The translations under genes were made by a program, and so were the position numbers. DNA of 63,401 bases, the filler included, from Globobulimina sp. (taxonomy: Eukaryota), in assembly GCA_003354225.1 (NCBI GenBank). It is 39 parts of 39 records of this genome, joined end to end, with 100 filler letters (N's around TTAATTAATTAA, not from the genome) between each part and the next. Parts side by side here need not be neighbours in the genome. Positions count along the whole stretch, not along the records: positions 1,631 to 3,159 come from PIVH01015249.1; 38 more parts are not named here. One strand, 5' to 3'. Each line of letters begins with the position of its first letter. The stretch's first letter is position 1. Below are positions 1 to 59,633 of the stretch, one piece after another. The notes under the pieces were generated by a model. It worked only from the letters and a program-made list of their open reading frames with translations, was not told where the DNA came from and searched no databases.

Positions 1-204
1 AATTGAATTCGATATCACCAGCGGTATCCGGCGCGCGGTCAACCTGGTGAACGAGGAACCGCGGGGGTTCATTCTCAGTGGTATTGATGACCCATCGGTA
101 TTCCCCATCCTCAGTCGGCCGCCTGACGTGACAACGCCGGATTTTTATTATCGCCAGATGAACTTTTTTGGTGTTATGACGACGATTTGAATAATGTATA
201 TGTT

Positions 205-1029
205 ATGGGCTATAAATGTGTTTATTGTCTGACTGATGAAGAAGAAATATGTAAGGATTGTGGTGAATGGGTATGCGATGGTCATAAATGTATTTGTGAT
301 GAATTTAGACATAATTGCTGCTGTAATGTTTTTGGTCTTTGCAGCCAATGCAATGAGGAATTTTGTAGTGGATGTAATGGCGGTGCATTGTGTAGAAGCT
401 GTAATAATGCCTTTTGTGGATATTGTGTCGCTTATTTTACGTGTGATATTTGTTATTTTTCGATGTGTTTAGATTGTGCTGAGAATGGGGGAATGGATGA
501 AATGATATTTTGCGAGAATTGCTGTGAGTATTTCTGTGGTGATTGTATTGATAAAGGAAAGTTAGGAGCGGTGTTTTGTGATAAATGTGGTAATTTTGTA
601 TGTGATCGCAGTAATAAGTGGAGGAATTGTAAGGTAATTGGAAATTGTAGCAAATGCGATAAAGCTGATGTTTGTTGTATTTGTGAGGATGATGGAGTAG
701 TTTGTGAGAAATGTCGTCAAATATTTTGTTCGCTATGCAATAAAAACAAACCAGGAGAAATATGTGAGAAATGTGCGAAATTTACATGTGTTGATTGTGA
801 TGGATCGTTATTTAAAGGTTGTTGTAGTTATTGTACACGGCCATATTGGTCGGGTTTAAGTGTTGGTGAATTGGTAAAATTGTTAAAAGAATGGAATGGT
901 GAAAATTGTGAAATTATTGAAAGATTAATCCGAGAGAAATTGATACAAAAATATGATGGATTATCGCATAGATTTCTTGAAAATGACAAAAAATTGAAAG
1001 AAGCAATGAATATTATTCAATCAGGTTAA
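205..1029 (+). CDS. Cysteine-rich CxxC-repeat hypothetical protein (intronless; possibly giant-virus or protist origin)
   Basis: Long open frame with more than 20 CxxC pairs. First ATG is at 205 (the track starts at TTG 187). Confidence 0.6.
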   Translation: MGYKCVYCLTDEEEICKDCGEWVCDGHKCICDEFRHNCCCNVFGLCSQCNEEFCSGCNGGALCRSCNNAFCGYCVAYFTCDICYFSMCLDCAENGGMDEMIFCENCCEYFCGDCIDKGKLGAVFCDKCGNFVCDRSNKWRNCKVIGNCSKCDKADVCCICEDDGVVCEKCRQIFCSLCNKNKPGEICEKCAKFTCVDCDGSLFKGCCSYCTRPYWSGLSVGELVKLLKEWNGENCEIIERLIREKLIQKYDGLSHRFLENDKKLKEAMNIIQSG

Positions 1030-1630: not shown

Positions 1631-2473
1631 CTGTTTCGCCAATCTTGGTGATTTTAGCAGGAAGAAGTAGGCAGTATTGGCCGAAATGATTCGACTGCTA
1701 GGCCATGGTCCAAAGATAAAGTGCAATAGCAGCACAATACTGCAGTTCTTGAGTCGGGCAATCGTAAACACTTGTGCCATATCTTTATTACTAGCTGCCG
1801 ATATGGAGTTGTCATCGATTATTATCAATGTTTGACCTCCGTTTGGATCGGCCATATCGTCCAAATCGGCTTCGGTGACGATAGATCCCTTGATGAAGTC
1901 ACATTTTATACCCTGAGCAGCCAGATTTTGTTGTAATTTGCCATATGAATCTTGCCAACCTAAAGTCAATTGCGTTTTTATACTGTTAAACCGGTACTGA
2001 ATTACTTACAGCTGTATATAAAATATACTCGAGTTGGTACTGGATTGTAGATTGTACTTGCATTTTCCAATGTTTTCATGAGCAAATGGGTTTTTCCCTG
2101 CAAAATAGATCATATTCAACATATTGGGATCAGTTATTACTAAACTTACACTCTGACTTGCTCCAGCATAGATAAAATTATGTGGCAATTGGAGCCTTTT
2201 ATCAAACTTGTCCGATTGTGGTATATCACTTGGTTGCACTATAGCATTGGAAATTGGCTGTTGAATGGTTTTGAAAGCATCTGGGGCGCCAATGTCAGTT
2301 TTTACTGGGTGATATCTGGCTATATGACGCTTCATGCTGTCCTTTCTTGTACTTACAAAGTCGCAGTTTTGACAAGGAATGAATGAATCTGGGTTGTGAC
2401 CCAATTCATGTCGATTGCAGTCAGACTGTCTAGCGAAAGGTGTATCGCAAAACCCACAAGTAACAGGAGACAT
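1631..2473 (-). CDS. C2H2 zinc-finger + Polinton/Maverick-type (A32-like) DNA packaging ATPase; introns 2098-2149 and 1960-2009; 3' truncated by contig end
   Basis: Splicing two GT..AG introns gives one frame: CGFC..H..H and CQNC..H..H fingers, Walker A AGASQS|GKT, YFIYSCWQDSY, Walker B LIIIDD, VFTIARLKNCSIVLLLHFIF, RIISANTAYFFLLKSPR. Confidence 0.85.
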
Positions 2474-2834
2474 GATGAGAACCAACCGCACACGACCAGT
2501 ACAATTGTATGAATGATGCTATTTTCAAGTTAATACTTATTATATCTAATGCAACATCATGGATTTGATGTGAAAAGGAACTTGTTTCTCCATCAGACAA
2601 CAGTTAAATTTGATTTTTTAATCAGTTTGAGTCATTACAAAGTCACAAACTATCGATCTCTTAACCCCCGAACGAGGTTGTCTATACCAAACTGCACATG
2701 CTCAAATGATTTAGCGTTATTTGTAGGACAGTCTATATGCTTCAGACTACCTTTGCGAGATTCTTGACACTATCTTACAGTTAAGGACTATCAGGTGACA
2801 CTGTTTTTATACCCATGACACCAAAATGATATGA

Positions 2835-3012: not shown

Positions 3013-3159
3013 TATGCGGCACTGCACCTCAATGTTACTGTTAGTGCCTCAGGTGTGTGGCACGTGCCACAGATCTGAGGCACTGAGCCGCATATATGCG
3101 GCACTGAGCCTCAGATGTGTGGCACGTGTCACACATCTGTGGCATATGCCACACATCTG
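3013..3159. repeat. Cluster of adjacent palindromes/hairpins
   Basis: 3043-3084 (21-bp arms, 2 mismatches); 3087-3102 (perfect 16 bp); 3112-3139 (14-bp arms, 1 mismatch); 3138-3153 (perfect 16 bp). Confidence 0.85.
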
Positions 3160-4888: not shown

Positions 4889-6143
4889 AGATGCTACATT
4901 TGTACTGCCACCTCCATCCAATATATTGGCAACAATAACATCCACCACGTCACCATTGATGCTAAACCCATCACCATTCGCATTTTGTAAGTCATCACAA
5001 ATAAATTCTTCGCCATACACATTATCCTCACAACTATTAAATAACATAATTTTTTGCTTCCTTCCAATGTCTCCATTATGAAACTCTCTCATCACATCAG
5101 CTAAACCTTGGGCTAAATTAGTACCATTTATACCATTTGGACGCGCAGCACAGTCAAAATCCTTTATCTGTTGGATCATTTCGTCCCTACTTTCTATTCC
5201 ATATTGCCGTAGAACTATTCTTGTCTCTGCTCCATTTGCATCATATGCGGCATAGCCAATGGCAATGTTATCATCATCAAATTCTATACGAGCTACAAGC
5301 TCACTGATACCACGTTGCCGTTTTCTGCATTCAGTCTCATTTAAACCACATGAATTATCCACCAAGAATACTAAATCAATATCATTTAAAACACACCCTG
5401 GTTCTGTGCATTTTGAATTTGCTATATCCGCACATCTCGCATCCCAACTTTCGTAACAACAAAATATCTCTTGACTACAGACGAATTCTTCGCAGGTAGG
5501 GTCTATGGCACATCCTGCAATGCCCGATGCAGTATTATCTAAACAGCTGCAACATATTTTATATGGATTGGTTGGGTTTGGTGTTGGCATTGCAGTGGGC
5601 TCAGAAGCAGAGGTGGTTGATGATGTAGTCGCAGTTGGATTGGTTGTTGGTGTTTGTGTGGATATCTCCGTTGGATCGAATGTTGGATTTGTTGTTGGTG
5701 TTTGTGTTGGATCGGATGTTGGATTTGCTGTTGGTGTTTGAGTGGGATCAGCAGTGCTTGTTGGTGTTTGTGTTGACATCTCTGTTGGATCGGATGTTGG
5801 CCCTCCAGTGCTTATTGCAGATGGCTCATTTGTAGTAGTTGCTGATACTGATACATAGCGTTGATTTTGTTTTTGTATTTTGTGCTCAGAAACGCAAATT
5901 GAAATGAAATACGTTTTTAACTTGTTGGGTTTTGACACCAAATAAAAACAACTGGAAACGAGTTTGCAAGCATCCTGAGCACCTATGTACATAATATAAT
6001 TTGTGGTTGCTTTAAATATAATAAAATGAACAAAATTATGGATCAGATTAACATTGAGTGCAGCTTGTATCACAATCTTGAGCCCATGATACGGAATATA
6101 TGGTTAAGATGAAAACAATGATTGACATGGTGATAACATTCAT
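4889..6143 (-). CDS. Secreted protein: signal peptide, PT-repeat stalk, Cys-rich module, von Willebrand factor A domain (spliced, 3' truncated)
   Basis: ATG 6143 MNVITMSIIVFILTIYSVSWAQ, then a GT-AG intron. PTxxPT repeats. VWA motifs DLVFLVDNSCG and GTNLAQGL. Confidence 0.8.
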
Positions 6144-17920: not shown

Positions 17921-19449
17921 AATCAACAATAATTGAATTCATACTGATCAACTCCATAACATCTATAATCGCATCAATATCCTCAATTAATATGAAAATA
18001 TGTTCCAACCGCAATACAAAATTAATCAAACCCGAGTCCTGATCCACCGTAACCCCCATCTCTCCAAATACGCGCACAACAGCAACCGTCGGATACATGC
18101 TTGGATTATGTGTTGGATTCGCTGTCGGACTCAGAGTCGACAATGGATTATTTGTTGGGAAATATGATGGGTTTACAGTTGGGAAATATGATGGGTTTAC
18201 AGTTGGGAAATCCGTTGGGTTTGAGGTGGGTTTTTTACTCGGAACCACCGTGGGAGCATAGGAAGGACTCAGTGGATGATACGTGGGCATCACAGTAGGC
18301 ATATACGAGGGACTGAGTGTAGGGAACTCAGTGGGAGTATATGATGGACCAAATGTAGGTGCTATACTTGGCATAAATGAAGGACCGAATGTAGGCGTCA
18401 TTGTAGGTAGCACTGTGGGAGCAAAACTCGGGTTATTTGTAGGAAACAAACTGGGCGCAAATGTGGGTGGTATTGTAGGCTGTTTACTGGGCGATGTTGT
18501 TGGGAGAAAGCTAGGTGGCAATGTGGGATTGGATGTGCTTGGATGCATAGTGGGAGAATGTGTGGGGACTGCAGTTGTGGGAGAAGTCGAAGGCGAAGAC
18601 GTAGGACAGTTACTTTGTGATATAACCGTGATTGGCTGTGCATTGATATCGATCACATTGTAGCCAGTACCCGAGACATACAATGACTTTGCCGTTGTAG
18701 TGGCACTCAGTGAGCTTTTCAAGCCAATATAACCAGAATATCCGTCATGTTTTATGTGTGCTAAGTGCGTGTCGTCTGTGTGGGAGATAATGTGTCGATC
18801 ATTGAGATAGAGATTGAATATGTTTGTATGTGGTGTTATATGTATGCTCAATAGATTTGTATCGACAACATTAGCAACGACAGCAACAAATTCTAATAAT
18901 GTGGTAGTGGACCCGTGGTGATATAATAAACCTAAATAAAATAGGTTTGTCGACAATTTCTGTAGGAAAATATAATAATATGCACAGGTGGTGGCTTGTA
19001 AGGAGCTATAGATTGTCAAGCCAGAATAGCCAGAATTTGAGCTGATGACAAAGGAAAATGTATAGTCAATTACTAATACATCGGGACCATTATACCATAA
19101 CTTATCCGCCAACACAAAATCGCTGTTTTCACTCAAAATGCTGGTGCAGTCGTCCAAAATGTCCCAGTTCCCATTCATTTTGGTCCACGCACTGTCACCG
19201 CAGAGCTGTGAAGGCATTTGTCAGAGTGCGTAGTTTATGGAAAGAGTGCCATCGCAAAAAGTGTCCATAAAGGAATAATCATTGCTGGCGGATAAGTGAA
19301 CACAATCTTTGTCAGCATGATGAATGGTCATCGAATTGAACATAAAATCAAATGGTGTGCCATCATCATAAATGTATAGACCTTCCGAGTCGATATCATT
19401 TAAACCAATGAGGCAAACCGCACCCAACAATGCACATAAATTTCTAGCT
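17921..19449 (-). CDS. C-type lectin domain + beta-rich domain + long PTxxP stalk surface protein; in-frame TGA at 19221-19223
   Basis: [41 protein letters not shown]. The two track ORFs are in the same frame. Confidence 0.8.
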
Positions 19450-30225: not shown

Positions 30226-30851
30226 CTAAAATTTGAGTACATTTGAGTTGCTGTAACCAATTTCATTCAATAATGTTCGCATTGTTCTATTAAACGAAGG
30301 AGGCCCACAATACATTACCACGACATCATCATTTGGCGGATATATATGCGTTTGAATGGTATCGCGGTCAATACGTCCAACACCACCTTTCCATTCTTCT
30401 TTATTGTCATCGGAGGCGGTTAGCTTCGAAACAGTATAATATATTTTTATATTTTTATTATTTTCACTCATTTCATGTAATTCCTCTTTTAATAATATGT
30501 CACTTTCCGTTTTATTCGAAAATATCAATGAAATTTGTGTGTGGTCCTCTGCTTTATTTTGATTTACACTTTTTAATATTTGATAAATTGGCGTTATGCC
30601 AGTTCCTCCACACAACATTCCGATTTTATTCACATTTACATCTCTAAACTTACCAATTCCTTCTGTGATTTTTAAGTGTGAGGCTCGATCATAATGAATG
30701 TTACCTAATGGCCCTTTACATTGTAAATAGTCACCAATGGCTAATCCATTTAATTGCTGTGTCATTTCCCCATCAGAGTATATTTTAATTAATAATTCAA
30801 AGTATCCGATGTCGCCATCATTTGATATTGGAGTATACGCTCTAATTAGCG
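30226..30851 (-). CDS. NADH-cytochrome b5 reductase-type FAD/NAD module (5' truncated)
   Basis: RAYTPIS, IKIY..GEMTQ, KGPLG, GGTGITP, FSNKTESDILL, CGPP, terminal F. Confidence 0.92.
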
Positions 30852-32679: not shown

Positions 32680-33995
32680 TTTATATATATATTTAATATT
32701 TATTCGCATTGGGATATGCACTGATAAAAGTATAGTTAGTAAACATCAAGCACATAAGATACAGAAGAAGAAAAAAGGTTAGTAAGCCACATTAAATCAC
32801 ATAGTATCTTCTGTTGAGATGACAGCAAGAATATCTTTTATTTCTTTTGTGGTCAAGCCACATTCTATTTCTCCATCAAGGCAGCAATTCAATTCTTTAA
32901 TTTGCGCAGCAATTCTGTTGTTTTCTTCATTCTGCATGGGAGCAATGATGTCACATAATATGCGCTTGTTCGCCGAAATAGTTGATATTGGACATCTATC
33001 AGCAACAAGTGCAATTTTTGAAACGATTTCGTTCTCTGACAATTCCATCATATGAATAAATTTTCTGGTCCTACTAAACACCTGTTGAAGCAAGTTGATA
33101 TTTTGAGCAACAACTGGAAGTACAGCAGAATGTGCTCGCCATGGAAGGCGCCATATTTTCCGCTGTATAATATTCCAAGCCGTTCTCACTCTATCAAGTG
33201 CTTGACAATCAAGGCGCCATGCTTGGCTGCCATATAATGCAGTGGCATATGTTTGGATTAACTTGCTTTTCAGACTAGCAGGGACAACACCAAAAGCATG
33301 GTTTACATAATTAGCCTGTCTTACAAAGTGATTTCGTTTCTGTTCAATGTCTATTGTGTCCTGAAGATCATAGGTGATATTGGCGCCTAGATGGCGGAAG
33401 TTGTCAACCCATTCGATCTCCCGACCTGCAACAGAAATAGTAGGAGTGACTCGATTTTTAATCCGTTTTGAACAGAATAACACACACTTTGTTTTAGTAG
33501 GATTAAATTTCATTTTATATTCAGTACCATAGTTTTCAATGGTTTTTATCATTGACTTCAGACCATCAGCAGTTGGACACAGCAATGTGATGTCATCAGC
33601 ATAGGCCAGCGCGCCAACATACAAGCCATCAATTTGACAGCCAATTTGTTGACACTTCAGCCTTAGCAGTAGTTCATCAACATACACTGTAAACAATACG
33701 GCTGACAGTATTGCACCTTGCCTGACACCATTCTTCACCATGAAGTGGTTGGATTTCATCGAATTCCATGTGACAGATACTCTCTGTCTCTTGTAGCTAT
33801 CAAGCAAAACCCTTAAAAAGGGGACTGGCAAACCCCTGTCAACTAAGAGACAAAATAGTTTTGGAAATGATACCAAATCAAATGCCTTTGTCGCATCAAC
33901 AAAACAAGCATACACATTGTTGCCTCCATGCCAATAGTGCTGTACAACTTCTTTTAGCACAGTGGTACACATAGTGGTCGAGTGATGTTGCTTGT
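32680..33995 (-). mobile_element. 5'-truncated non-LTR (LINE) retrotransposon; RT ORF 32797-33972
   Basis: HSTTMC, FVDATKAFD, NGVRQGAILS, LAYADD, FNPTKT, HLG. AATAAA plus a (TA)n-like tail downstream. Homology stops at ~33995 with no endonuclease. Possibly from a different (animal) genome. Confidence 0.93.
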
Positions 33996-34207
33996 ATCAG
34001 TTGTTTGCCTAAGTTGACACCCCGCTTTTTAAAATGACACCCGACATTTTTTAGAGATTGCAAAAAGCAAATTTTTGCTAAAAATTCCTGAAAATGAAAA
34101 ATTGCACNNNNNNNNNNNNNNNNNNNNNNNNNNNNNNNNNNNNNNNNNNNNTTAATTAATTAANNNNNNNNNNNNNNNNNNNNNNNNNNNNNNNNNNNNN
34201 NNNNNNN

Positions 34208-38991: not shown

Positions 38992-39478
38992 NNNNNNNNN
39001 NNNNNNNNNNNNNNNNNNNNNNNNNNNNNNNNNNNTTAATTAATTAANNNNNNNNNNNNNNNNNNNNNNNNNNNNNNNNNNNNNNNNNNNNTTAAAATTA
39101 AAGCTTTTAATTTGGACACAATTACCATCATTTAAACATAATTGGCATTGTGTTTTTTTTTGCCATTTTTTTGCTTTTGTTATTGTAAAATCGAAAGAAA
39201 TGTTTGGGGAATTTTGTTGTTTTGCATTTTTTTTTCTGTTTTTTTTTTTTATATTTTATTTCTAAAACGTAAAGAAATTTACGTAACCTCAACATTTTAA
39301 ATGTAATGATAATAAAAAGTTCCAGGGCATTTTATTATTCTCTTTGTGTTATATTTTATTATTTAACATTCATTCCATTTGTCCTGAAGAAATATGCTCG
39401 TGTTTGTGTTTACAGTGCAAGGAGATGCGAGAAAGCAACAAAAAAACTTAAACACAAGTCATATTTAGTATACTTAGT

Positions 39479-40087
39479 ATGGGTTGCTTTCCCTCTGCAG
39501 AAGAATTGTTGTCAATATCTGTTATATTTTTGGATGTTGACGGTGTTTTGAATTCAGCGCAAACCCAAATGTGTGGAATTGATAAAGTTCATGTGGATAG
39601 TTTGGAATATATTATGGAAAATACTGAATATCGCTGCAAAATTGTTTTATCCACTTCATGGAGAAACAATGCAAATACAAAACAACAATTATTAAATACA
39701 TTGGAAAGAGAGTTGGAGAATATTGAGAATATCGATGATTTAGTGATTGGTTCAACTCCATCATTGCACAATGAACAAAGAGCAAACGAAATTGATAAAT
39801 ATTTTAAAGTCAATAAAAAGTTTATCAATAAAACATATAACATCATATCATGGGTAGCATTGGATGATATGAACCTAAATTATCCAAATGACAAATGTAA
39901 ACAAATAATGGATGGGCATTTTGTTAAAATAAACTGTGAGCATGGATTGACTTTATATAATGCGAAAATGGCTGTCAATATTTTAAATTGTAATGAAGCT
40001 GCAAATGCTCAATATAAGCAAGAGATAAATGAGAAAGAAGCTGAAATTGAGGCTAAATATCTATCGCTATGTGCAAAATATTCTTAA
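39479..40087 (+). CDS. HAD-superfamily phosphatase of the Swiss-Army-Knife RNA-repair type (HAD_SAK_2-like)
   Basis: IFLDVDGVLN, KIVLSTSWR, IGSTP, RANEI, WVALDD, GLT. Confidence 0.88.
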   Translation: MGCFPSAEELLSISVIFLDVDGVLNSAQTQMCGIDKVHVDSLEYIMENTEYRCKIVLSTSWRNNANTKQQLLNTLERELENIENIDDLVIGSTPSLHNEQRANEIDKYFKVNKKFINKTYNIISWVALDDMNLNYPNDKCKQIMDGHFVKINCEHGLTLYNAKMAVNILNCNEAANAQYKQEINEKEAEIEAKYLSLCAKYS

Positions 40088-58980: not shown

Positions 58981-59424
58981 CTAGTCAAAATGTACTACCC
59001 GCATAAATTCCTCTTCGGTCATCCCTTTGCCGTATCGTTTTAGAAATCCACCGATGCAATCTTTGAACAGTTCTCTAAATTCCAGTTCTTCCATTTCATC
59101 GAAGGCGATCGACTTGGGCCAGTACTGTGTTGCTGGCTGTACGTGGTTGCACTTCTCGCACTTCACCCGCCCTAATACAACCTCTTCAAAATGCCCGCCA
59201 ATCATCTGCAGGACTTTGCGCCACACGTTTTTATTGTCGTGATCATCCTGCATATCCATGGTCACACCGACCAGCTTGAAGAACCGCCGATGATTGCCAG
59301 GACAGCGGGTTTTTTTAATCTCGACCATGACGAGCTCGCCGTATGATAATTTTTCTAACGCTTCCTGTGTTTCACTGCAGGCCGGTGCTAATGAGCCAGC
59401 CATTTTTTTCATTACGCCTTTCAT
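58981..59424 (-). CDS. Phage DUF1367-family protein
   Basis: L.P......L.KL..GE.V.VE.KK.R....HRRFF.L, GHFE, PKSIAF..M.E.EF..L. Confidence 0.8.
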   Translation of the reverse strand: MKGVMKKMAGSLAPACSETQEALEKLSYGELVMVEIKKTRCPGNHRRFFKLVGVTMDMQDDHDNKNVWRKVLQMIGGHFEEVVLGRVKCEKCNHVQPATQYWPKSIAFDEMEELEFRELFKDCIGGFLKRYGKGMTEEEFMRVVHFD

Positions 59425-59426
59425 AT

Positions 59427-59633
59427 TTAGTCTTTTAACCCTATCTCGGTATAGCCTTTGATTATCGATGGTACTGATTCCACAACGCTTGTTGATGAAC
59501 GATGATATCCAGTAAGGAGATTAACTCTGCAATCATACCGGCAGATCACACCGTCGCTTCGTTTATAAAATTCTTTGTTGTATTCCATAGCCAGGAAGTG
59601 TTTTCTGAACTTCGCTAAATATTGTTTAGTCAT
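59427..59633 (-). CDS. Phage hypothetical protein
   Basis: Tightly packed, co-directional ORF overlapping its neighbour. Confidence 0.6.
   Translation of the reverse strand: MTKQYLAKFRKHFLAMEYNKEFYKRSDGVICRYDCRVNLLTGYHRSSTSVVESVPSIIKGYTEIGLKD

Follow-up and report, generated by a model that had tools for sequence, protein, structure and literature searches.

A predicted A32-like ATPase gene with two zinc fingers and two introns in a Globobulimina sp. assembly, and upstream repeat arrays that co-vary with its fingers

The DNA analysed here, called the window (positions 1-63401; 63,401 nucleotides, nt), comes from assembly GCA_003354225.1 of Globobulimina sp. and consists of 39 contigs, each 1,527-1,530 bases long, which are ordered by length and separated by linkers of an N-run, TTAATTAATTAA and another N-run; features on different pieces are unlinked. 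The gene in question is confined to the second contig (1631-3159, 1,529 bases) and is predicted to encode an A32-like packaging-type ATPase behind two N-terminal C2H2 zinc fingers. It has three exons on the minus strand, running from 2473 to 1631, where the contig end cuts off its 3' end, so that the C-terminal ~90 conserved residues plus a tail are absent. Repeat arrays lie upstream of this gene and of its related copies, and the base-contacting residues of the fingers co-vary with the repeat half-sites (GTGGC-, GTGGA-, GAGGA-); these arrays and this match are what is new here. The features of the contig are as follows.

2150..2473, minus strand: exon 1, ATG at 2473, 108 codons; two C2H2 fingers, then a variable linker, then GASQS as the opening half of Walker A
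2396..2458, minus strand: zinc finger 1, residues 6-26, CGFCDTPFARQSDCNRHELGH; helix positions -1, 2, 3 and 6 are R, S, D and R
2309..2374, minus strand: zinc finger 2, residues 34-55, CQNCDFVSTRKDSMKRHIARYH; helix positions -1, 2, 3 and 6 are R, D, S and R
2098..2149, minus strand: predicted intron 1, 52 nt, GTAAGT...TTTTGCAG (GCAG end), phase 0, within Walker A
2010..2097, minus strand: exon 2, GKTHLLMKTLENASTIYNPVPTRVYFIYS plus one base; GKT of Walker A and 26 further residues, then base 1 of a Cys codon
1960..2009, minus strand: predicted intron 2, 50 nt, GTAAGT...CTTTAG, phase 1, splitting T/GT (Cys)
1631..1959, minus strand: exon 3; Walker B LIIIDD at 1811-1828, Leu of ARL at 1751-1753, clade-specific sensor His at 1721-1723
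2474..2674, minus strand: proximal upstream region, likely promoter and 5' untranslated region; 94% identical to locus L011
2835..2973, strand unassigned: four units repeated in direct orientation every 30-31 nt
3043..3159: palindromic sites, among them three copies of TGTGGCAYRTGCCACA and also GCCGCATATATGCGGC, arrayed every 20-21 nt up to the contig end; candidate finger sites

Exon 1 ends with the codons GCA AGT CAG AGT, and taking both introns out yields GASQS/GKT, a Walker A of the form G-x4-GKT, and the uninterrupted YS-C-WQ. On re-reading, the coordinates and junctions that the original prediction had given for the two introns (2098-2149 and 1960-2009) were correct, and its fusion of the ATPase to C2H2 fingers was borne out by Pfam, which scores the region of both fingers in exon 1 above the cut-offs of two families (zf-H2C2_5, 28.3 against 27 bits; zf-C2H2, 27.6 against 25.2 bits). 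For comparison, 11 related loci on contigs of 1.2-3.0 kb were fetched from a metagenome scan, ten of which span the intron region; eight of the eleven share one assembly prefix and three another, and the copies may belong to a single genome or to several related organisms. The pattern C-x2-C-x12-H-x3-4-H is found in all nine loci with a complete exon 1, the exception being finger 1 of L006 and L008, where the second His is missing. The start context, ATG-GCT-CC with its variants (ATG-(G/T/A)CTC), is likewise kept in 9 of the 9 loci with 5' sequence. We hold this gene structure, together with the A32-like family assignment given below, to be close to certain.

The introns are supported by comparison of the copies. 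In all 11 copies (the window and ten loci) both introns stand at the identical codon and phase, and all 22 of them start with GT and end with AG, while their lengths drift (intron 1, 49-61 nt; intron 2, 48-56 nt) and their sequences are unalignable; the codon split by intron 2 is Cys in every copy. Translated, the three exons fit end to end on P0037, P0038 and P0041, relatives that are uninterrupted, with no gap or overlap. Three other relatives (P0007, P0011 and P0018), which come from prokaryote-style gene calls, translate intron 2 in frame as an insert of 17-18 residues, and the database entries retrieved are split as such gene calling would split an intron-bearing gene. GT..AG ends, a reading frame restored on removal and a position kept during drift of sequence and length are the marks of U2-type introns. 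The two insertions are therefore, on comparative evidence, real introns as originally proposed, and are probably spliced in vivo: the host spliceosome would remove both U2-type GT-AG introns from the P-loop region, which would imply nuclear transcription. Contigs of four sequencing runs contain no joint at either intron, one 244-nt run contig being colinear with the DNA across both, and are silent on expression.

To place the ATPase, we compared an alignment of the gene's own family (A3) with an alignment of 12 Pox_A32 proteins (A5) that pass the Pfam gathering cut-off of PF04665, 22.8 bits. The split motif GASQS/GKT aligns with G-x-S-x-SGKT of the Pfam-passing relatives. Searching 1.84 billion proteins by phmmer with exon 3 alone returned 71 matches at E<=0.001; 36 of these were scanned with Pfam, and it turned out that 14 lie above the Pox_A32 cut-off and 11 more list Pox_A32 below it. 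Some of the Pfam-passing proteins are matched directly, namely P0038 (8.2e-15), P0039 (2.4e-13) and P0052 (3.7e-8), and Pox_A32 is the top Pfam match in 8 of 8 close homologues. Between the profiles A3 and A5, hhalign gives a probability of 100% (E 9.6e-45, 175 columns). In the ESM Atlas, Pox_A32 occurs in 27 of 30 match clusters for P0037 and 24 of 30 for P0005, and the few recorded taxa are Nematoda, Arthropoda, Mollusca, Cnidaria, Preplasmiviricota and Nucleocytoviricota.

Fold comparison was made on P0041, a two-finger relative 33% identical to the window protein and taken in its place. The ATPase domain of its AlphaFold model has a predicted local distance difference test score (pLDDT) of 86-98, and the fingers are of low confidence. 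Against the PDB, this model matches best to STIV/STIV2 B204 (8 of the top 10 rows, E 1.1e-5, template modelling (TM) score 0.63 on target), and its best viral matches are adenovirus IVa2, A32-like ATPases of giant viruses, the mavirus ATPase and an adintovirus ATPase; a search of the PDB by sequence profile gave no meaningful match, the best being a designed Rossmann protein at E 0.012. The phmmer, hhalign, ESM Atlas and fold results agree with one another and with the original call of an A32-like ATPase. By these comparisons, the predicted protein is an ATPase of the A32-like type (FtsK-HerA superfamily), that is, of the packaging kind of Polintons/Mavericks, adintoviruses, virophages, adenoviruses and giant viruses, and its predicted role is ATP-driven packaging of DNA into a capsid.

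Two residues had been pointed out as oddities of this copy, a His at the sensor position (LLLHFIF), where Gln is usual, and a Walker B reading DDN. Neither is peculiar to it. The D-D of LIIIDD is the family norm, invariant in A5 and in a further alignment, A6, and the His is no lesion, as it is invariant in the clade and its nearest relatives (H138 in alignment A2, H258 in A6), Gln being found in the more distant Pfam-passing relatives P0083, P0095 and P0072. His is polar and may fill the role of Gln, the residue that usually closes the strand following Walker B. Another substitution does set the window copy apart: at the His of the ARH motif, which is invariant in all relatives, it has Leu (1751-1753, CTC on the gene strand), and both of the two contigs of sequencing run X1 that cover base 1752 have a His codon.

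The gene belongs to an old, diversified, multicopy family under strong purifying selection. With exon 3 as query, 25 database clusters were retrieved (49-93% identity), every one of them from short contigs, and in run X1 there are 108 contigs on the stretch with 85-100% identity, falling into identity classes of 21, 33, 33 and 21. The parts present in all 11 loci contain no stop or frameshift. Over the first 109 codons of exon 3, the ratio of non-synonymous to synonymous substitution rates (dN/dS) is 0.045-0.137 in the 20 unsaturated pairs of 66; synonymous sites are saturated in the remaining 46, where dN is 0.11-0.24. The finger exon evolves faster than the ATPase exon (35-73% against 73-95% identity), which is the pattern that co-evolution with private sites would give.

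Repeat arrays occur 5' of the ATG in 9 of the 9 copies with a 5' flank. In the window, the array motif has 3 matches against 0.04 expected, with none on the other 38 contigs, and the array at 3043..3159 itself forms an inverted repeat of 50+50 nt. The ~200 nt just before the ATG are kept only between close pairs, such as the window and L011. To relate fingers and repeats, we applied to the residues at helix positions -1, 3 and 6 of both fingers the canonical C2H2 code, in which Arg reads G, Asn at position 3 reads A, Asp at position 3 reads C and Ser at position 3 reads T. The predicted site, 5'-[finger 2][finger 1]-3', is G-x-G-G-x-x, and the commonest G.GG.. hexamer was counted in each flank. 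The copies are given below with the upstream repeat, the residues at position 3 of fingers 2/1, and the hexamer.

Window: arrays listed above; Ser/Asp; GTGGCA
L011: 21-nt repeats; Ser/Asp; GTGGCG
L004: CGCCACAAATTTGTGGCG; Ser/Asp; GTGGCG
L009: TCCACATATATGTGGA at 31-nt spacing; Ser/Asn; GTGGAT and GTGGAC
L010: TCCACATATATGTGGA at 31-nt spacing; Ser/Asn; GTGGAT, tied with a hexamer from a GC hairpin
L002: ATCCTCATATATGAGGAT at least 8 times at 31-nt spacing; Asn/Asn; GAGGAT
L008: Asn/Asn; GAGGAT
L006: GCCCTCATATATGAGGGC; Asn/Asn; GAGGGC among the iterons, one of the two variable bases fitting
L003: thirteen 31-nt units with GTCCCAAATTTTGGGAC; Val/Asn; repeats out of register

The code fits both variable bases in 7 of the 9 copies. 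The exact predicted site is counted 9 times for L011, 5 times for L004 and 29 times for L002, and in each case none of 1000 shuffles reaches the count. The fingers probably bind the upstream repeats, as judged from this match between helix residues and bases.

Two of the copies have, in addition, a GC-rich near-perfect hairpin 430-570 bp upstream of the ATG, at L006:1-184 (arm 72 nt, loop 40) and L010:1-231 (arm 89, loop 53), which reaches the first base of both contigs. The loops hold small palindromes, e.g. GGCCTCCATAGGAGGCC and AGATCT, and the likeness between the two hairpins is 91% when they are set in opposite orientation and 75% when they are set in the same one. This structure may represent the terminus or the origin of an element, occurring in flip/flop forms, or else an assembly fold-back. 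Rfam matches on the contig to hairpin-like microRNAs lie far below the gathering scores and were discarded as products of the palindromes. One side of the putative element is seen on these contigs, and the repeat arrays and the hairpin lie on it without defining an element end. On the downstream side, a block shared by L008 (1637-2051) and L010 (1910-2349, where it is partly duplicated) is 90.6% identical over 427 aligned bases and has thus changed less than synonymous positions in the gene beside it (dS 0.62). A coding origin of this block was rejected, the mismatches being 17, 15 and 8 by codon position and the indels being of 1, 2 and 4 nt.

Among known systems, the closest is the ATPase (PF04665) of Polintons/Mavericks, adintoviruses and polinton-like viruses, to which the hhalign probability of 100% refers and whose ATPase domain has ~220 residues. 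Shared motifs are, in order, G-x4-GKT, Y/F-x-C-x-Q-x-x-Y, hhhhDD, FT-x-x-RH-x-N-x-S, R-x-IS-x-N-x-x-Y-x-x-L-x-x-SPR and YGY-x-L-x-D. The gene described here differs in its two N-terminal C2H2 fingers, two conserved introns, sensor His in place of Gln and long charged tail, and with these introns and its long non-coding flanks it is not the compact, intronless gene that has been described for vertebrate Mavericks and for protist elements of the polinton-like kind. The finger fusion, which had been regarded as a peculiarity, is found elsewhere as well. P0041 and P0160 have two fingers that look homologous to those of this gene (in P0041, N-terminal C2H2 fingers), joined to an A32-like ATPase, and lack these introns; the helix of the second finger of P0041 (RKDVLDRHI) resembles that of this gene (RKDSMKRHI), and P0041, at 33% identity, is uninterrupted at both intron sites. 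Besides, P0083 (sea-anemone KAK3727741.1) retains Gln at the sensor position and has a single C2H2-like finger at its N-terminus, and in P0095 the fingers are C-terminal to the A32-like ATPase. We found no zinc-finger or C2H2 packaging ATPase of polintons in a text search of the literature, to which supplements and Repbase, where the fusion may already be catalogued, did not belong; all that it brought up were unrelated Zn-ribbon or C2H2 genes of virophages (PMC3671162).

Adenovirus IVa2 offers a functional parallel. It too is an A32-like packaging ATPase with nuclear expression and with repeated cis sites near one genome end, its mRNA is spliced, and it takes ranks 1-2 in BFVD for the P0041 model (E 4.8e-10 and 1.1e-8). 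It differs in having no zinc fingers, in needing L4-22K for full site recognition, and in its sites, spacing and host, and the identity in the structural alignment is ~14%. According to the accessible part of PMC4404914, packaging depends on IVa2 being bound to the A repeats of the packaging domain; IVa2 also binds promoter elements. B204 of STIV/STIV2 (PDB 4r2h, 4kfr-4kfu), the best PDB match of the P0041 model, shares the A32-like core fold; it is archaeal, lacks a DNA-reading domain, and at 11-14% identity has no match found at sequence level.

The reading that we prefer, to which we give an even chance, is that the protein is the packaging-type motor of a polinton-like element with a built-in sequence reader, loaded on arrays near its own gene. 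In this scheme, the gene would be one copy of a multicopy, selectively maintained family in an AT-rich eukaryote with short introns, and its product would consist of two N-terminal C2H2 fingers, a variable linker, an A32-like ATPase and, in full-length copies, a charged tail. The two fingers would recognise half-sites of 6 bp, 5'-G-N-G-G-N-N-3', which recur, for the most part as palindromes, every 20-21, 31 or 48 nt in arrays 200-700 bp upstream of the gene. Finger binding would concentrate subunits of the ATPase near one end of the DNA of its own element, where the ATPase could assemble and act as a packaging motor, as IVa2 does on the A repeats of the adenovirus packaging domain; the same binding could auto-regulate the promoter of the gene. 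The parts of this scheme differ in strength. Because the gene is multicopy, is under purifying selection and has cognate repeat arrays, we lean towards a mobile or viral element over a single host gene, which we think rather probable; residence in a polinton-like element and a role in DNA binding and packaging are putative. That the binding of fingers to repeats serves packaging, for which the IVa2 analogy is the guide, is tentative and has somewhat less than an even chance. A further possibility, which we put forward as speculative and on the whole unlikely, is that the gene marks an undescribed nuclear, intron-bearing lineage of polinton-like elements in an unsampled protist group, with ends made of a GC-rich hairpin and then iteron arrays, and with two C2H2 fingers, acquired by the packaging ATPase, that co-evolve with a private packaging signal.

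Several observations weigh against the packaging-motor reading or parts of it. Concerning the fingers, the exact predicted six-base site is present in only 3 of the 9 flanks, L003 is off register and L006 is right at one of the two variable bases; the register was set from the invariant Gs after the repeats had been seen, and the nine copies represent about six lineages. Concerning the family, exon 3 alone has no Pox_A32 match in Pfam at E<=1 in a scan that covered single exons, the eight close homologues reach only 13.7-17.5 bits, under the cut-off of 22.8, and membership rests on transitive and profile evidence. Concerning the gene itself, the window copy may be impaired by its change from ARH to ARL; no spliced RNA was seen, and splicing is predicted from the comparison of copies. 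As for the element, no polymerase, integrase, capsid or protease gene is found on the 12 contigs of 1.2-3.0 kb, the flanks (0.6-0.75 kb upstream and at most 1.08 kb downstream) contain no nameable open reading frame (ORF) when inspected by eye only, and they are looser than a compact polinton genome. No relative is found in IMG/VR viral contigs with P0005, P0037, P0035, P0039 and A3 as queries. Finally, genes of Mavericks or polinton-like elements are stated or assumed to be intronless in the accessible parts of PMC8097293, PMC10120064 and PMC9356565. Introner transposons inside dinoflagellate polinton-like elements are reported in PMC12166617. A typical compact Polinton is made less likely by the loose flanks and the introns, a simple host gene by the many copies with their private cis sites. 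To these context searches we add that GTDB genome contigs contain no relative for query A3, that a Pfam scan of 50 window ORFs gave no capsid, penton or protease, on pieces that are, apart from the second, unlinked to the gene, and that two relatives lie on longer contigs, P0035 on one of 22.6 kb and P0040 on one of 8.5 kb. Rotifer Terminon retroelements were considered and set aside, no such ATPase being mentioned in the accessible part of PMC6431247.

The gene might instead be domesticated: an A32-like ATPase captured in the distant past by a host from a polinton-like virus, fused to fingers and provided with introns, and now at work for the host, for instance in chromatin, repair or antiviral defence as an ATPase that binds specific DNA sequences, with the repeats as auto-regulatory promoter elements. 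This would suit the intron positions kept across copies saturated at synonymous sites, the strong purifying selection, the contigs devoid of viral genes with their long non-coding flanks, and the empty IMG/VR search, and IVa2 demonstrates, as described in the accessible part of PMC4404914, that such ATPases can act as transcription factors. A host gene family would hardly be expected in so large a number of divergent copies (one assembly series has at least 8 contigs and run X1 has 108, and there are 25 clusters), each with its own repeat variant and matching finger residues, which rather resembles lineages of selfish elements with private cis sites. The exon 3 database searches gave no spliced, annotated orthologue from any named genome, and the contigs all break in or near repeats, as expected of repeated elements. 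We consider domestication unlikely, though a serious competitor. The layout of the upstream side allows another view, which we consider improbable, in which the gene is the replication or maintenance module of some other small element, an initiator- or partition-like iteron binder acting at a GC-rich hairpin origin or terminus. Arrays with a spacing of about two or three helical turns upstream of a gene for a DNA-binding NTPase are indeed iteron-like, the hairpin of L006 and L010 (arms 72-89 nt) lies 430-570 bp upstream, and the non-coding block downstream (90.6%, 427 nt, no 3-base periodicity) exceeds synonymous conservation (dS 0.62). The ATPase, however, falls firmly in the A32-like packaging clade by sequence and fold, DnaB-type helicases reaching TM scores of 0.24-0.28 on target against 0.58-0.63 for B204, and the hairpins, which extend to the first base of their contigs, could be assembly fold-backs. 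We know of no A32-like ATPase that acts as a replication initiator.

The window copy could also be a decaying relic, i.e. a dead fragment of an old insertion whose introns are pseudogene insertions. Its Leu at an invariant His, where two of two run-X1 contigs read a His codon, and its incompleteness in the window would agree with this, but the truncation is merely the contig end, frames are open in all 11 copies, dN/dS is 0.05-0.14, and the inserts, which differ in length, all occupy fixed positions and are bounded by GT..AG (22 of 22). Decay is very improbable, and for the family as a whole it is close to refuted.

To our knowledge, no packaging signal has been defined for polinton-like viruses or Mavericks, and how DNA is chosen for their capsids is a puzzle. 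The gene described here may show how such virus-like elements choose their own DNA. A readable DNA-recognition domain and arrays that change in step with it turn the recognition of a packaging signal into a simple binding question with predicted sites. If the speculative reading of an undescribed lineage with co-evolving private signals were true, each sub-lineage would package, and perhaps regulate, only its own DNA, which would amount to a built-in incompatibility or self-recognition system of a eukaryotic virus-like transposon. Surveys that use prokaryotic gene finders on the assumption of no introns, as the accessible parts of PMC10120064 and PMC9356565 describe, would split or miss this family.

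The other contigs of the window contain several recognizable genes. The host is taken to be a eukaryote because DNA-PKcs, G-alpha, MAGE, myosin TH1 and other eukaryotic domains are found on them. At 30229-30849 (minus strand) there is a fragment of a cytochrome-b5 reductase, which has 64% identity to a EukProt entry but no more than 39% to any species with a name (a red alga, plants, rotifers, fungi and a slime mould), so that the source organism stands far apart from genomes with sequence and annotation. Early candidates for the host, a bdelloid rotifer and a nematode, are not supported. Domains typical of bacteria and phages occur at 39452-40084 (plus strand; HAD_SAK_2, of RNA-repair proteins, E 2.7e-21) and 58984-59520 (minus strand; DUF1367, E 2.4e-12), and point to transferred genes or to non-eukaryotic contigs in the assembly. 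A reverse transcriptase domain at 32800-33996 (minus strand; RVT_1, E 3e-22) is a retroelement fragment. The open frame at 127-1029 (plus strand, 300 residues) is dense in CxxC/CxxxC pairs and B-box- or RING-like, with no Pfam match at E<=1e-5. Long Pro/Thr-rich repeats (PT repeat) are encoded at 4889-6103 and 17922-19220, both on the minus strand, and in one of the PT-repeat proteins they are accompanied by a von Willebrand A domain and a Cys-rich module.

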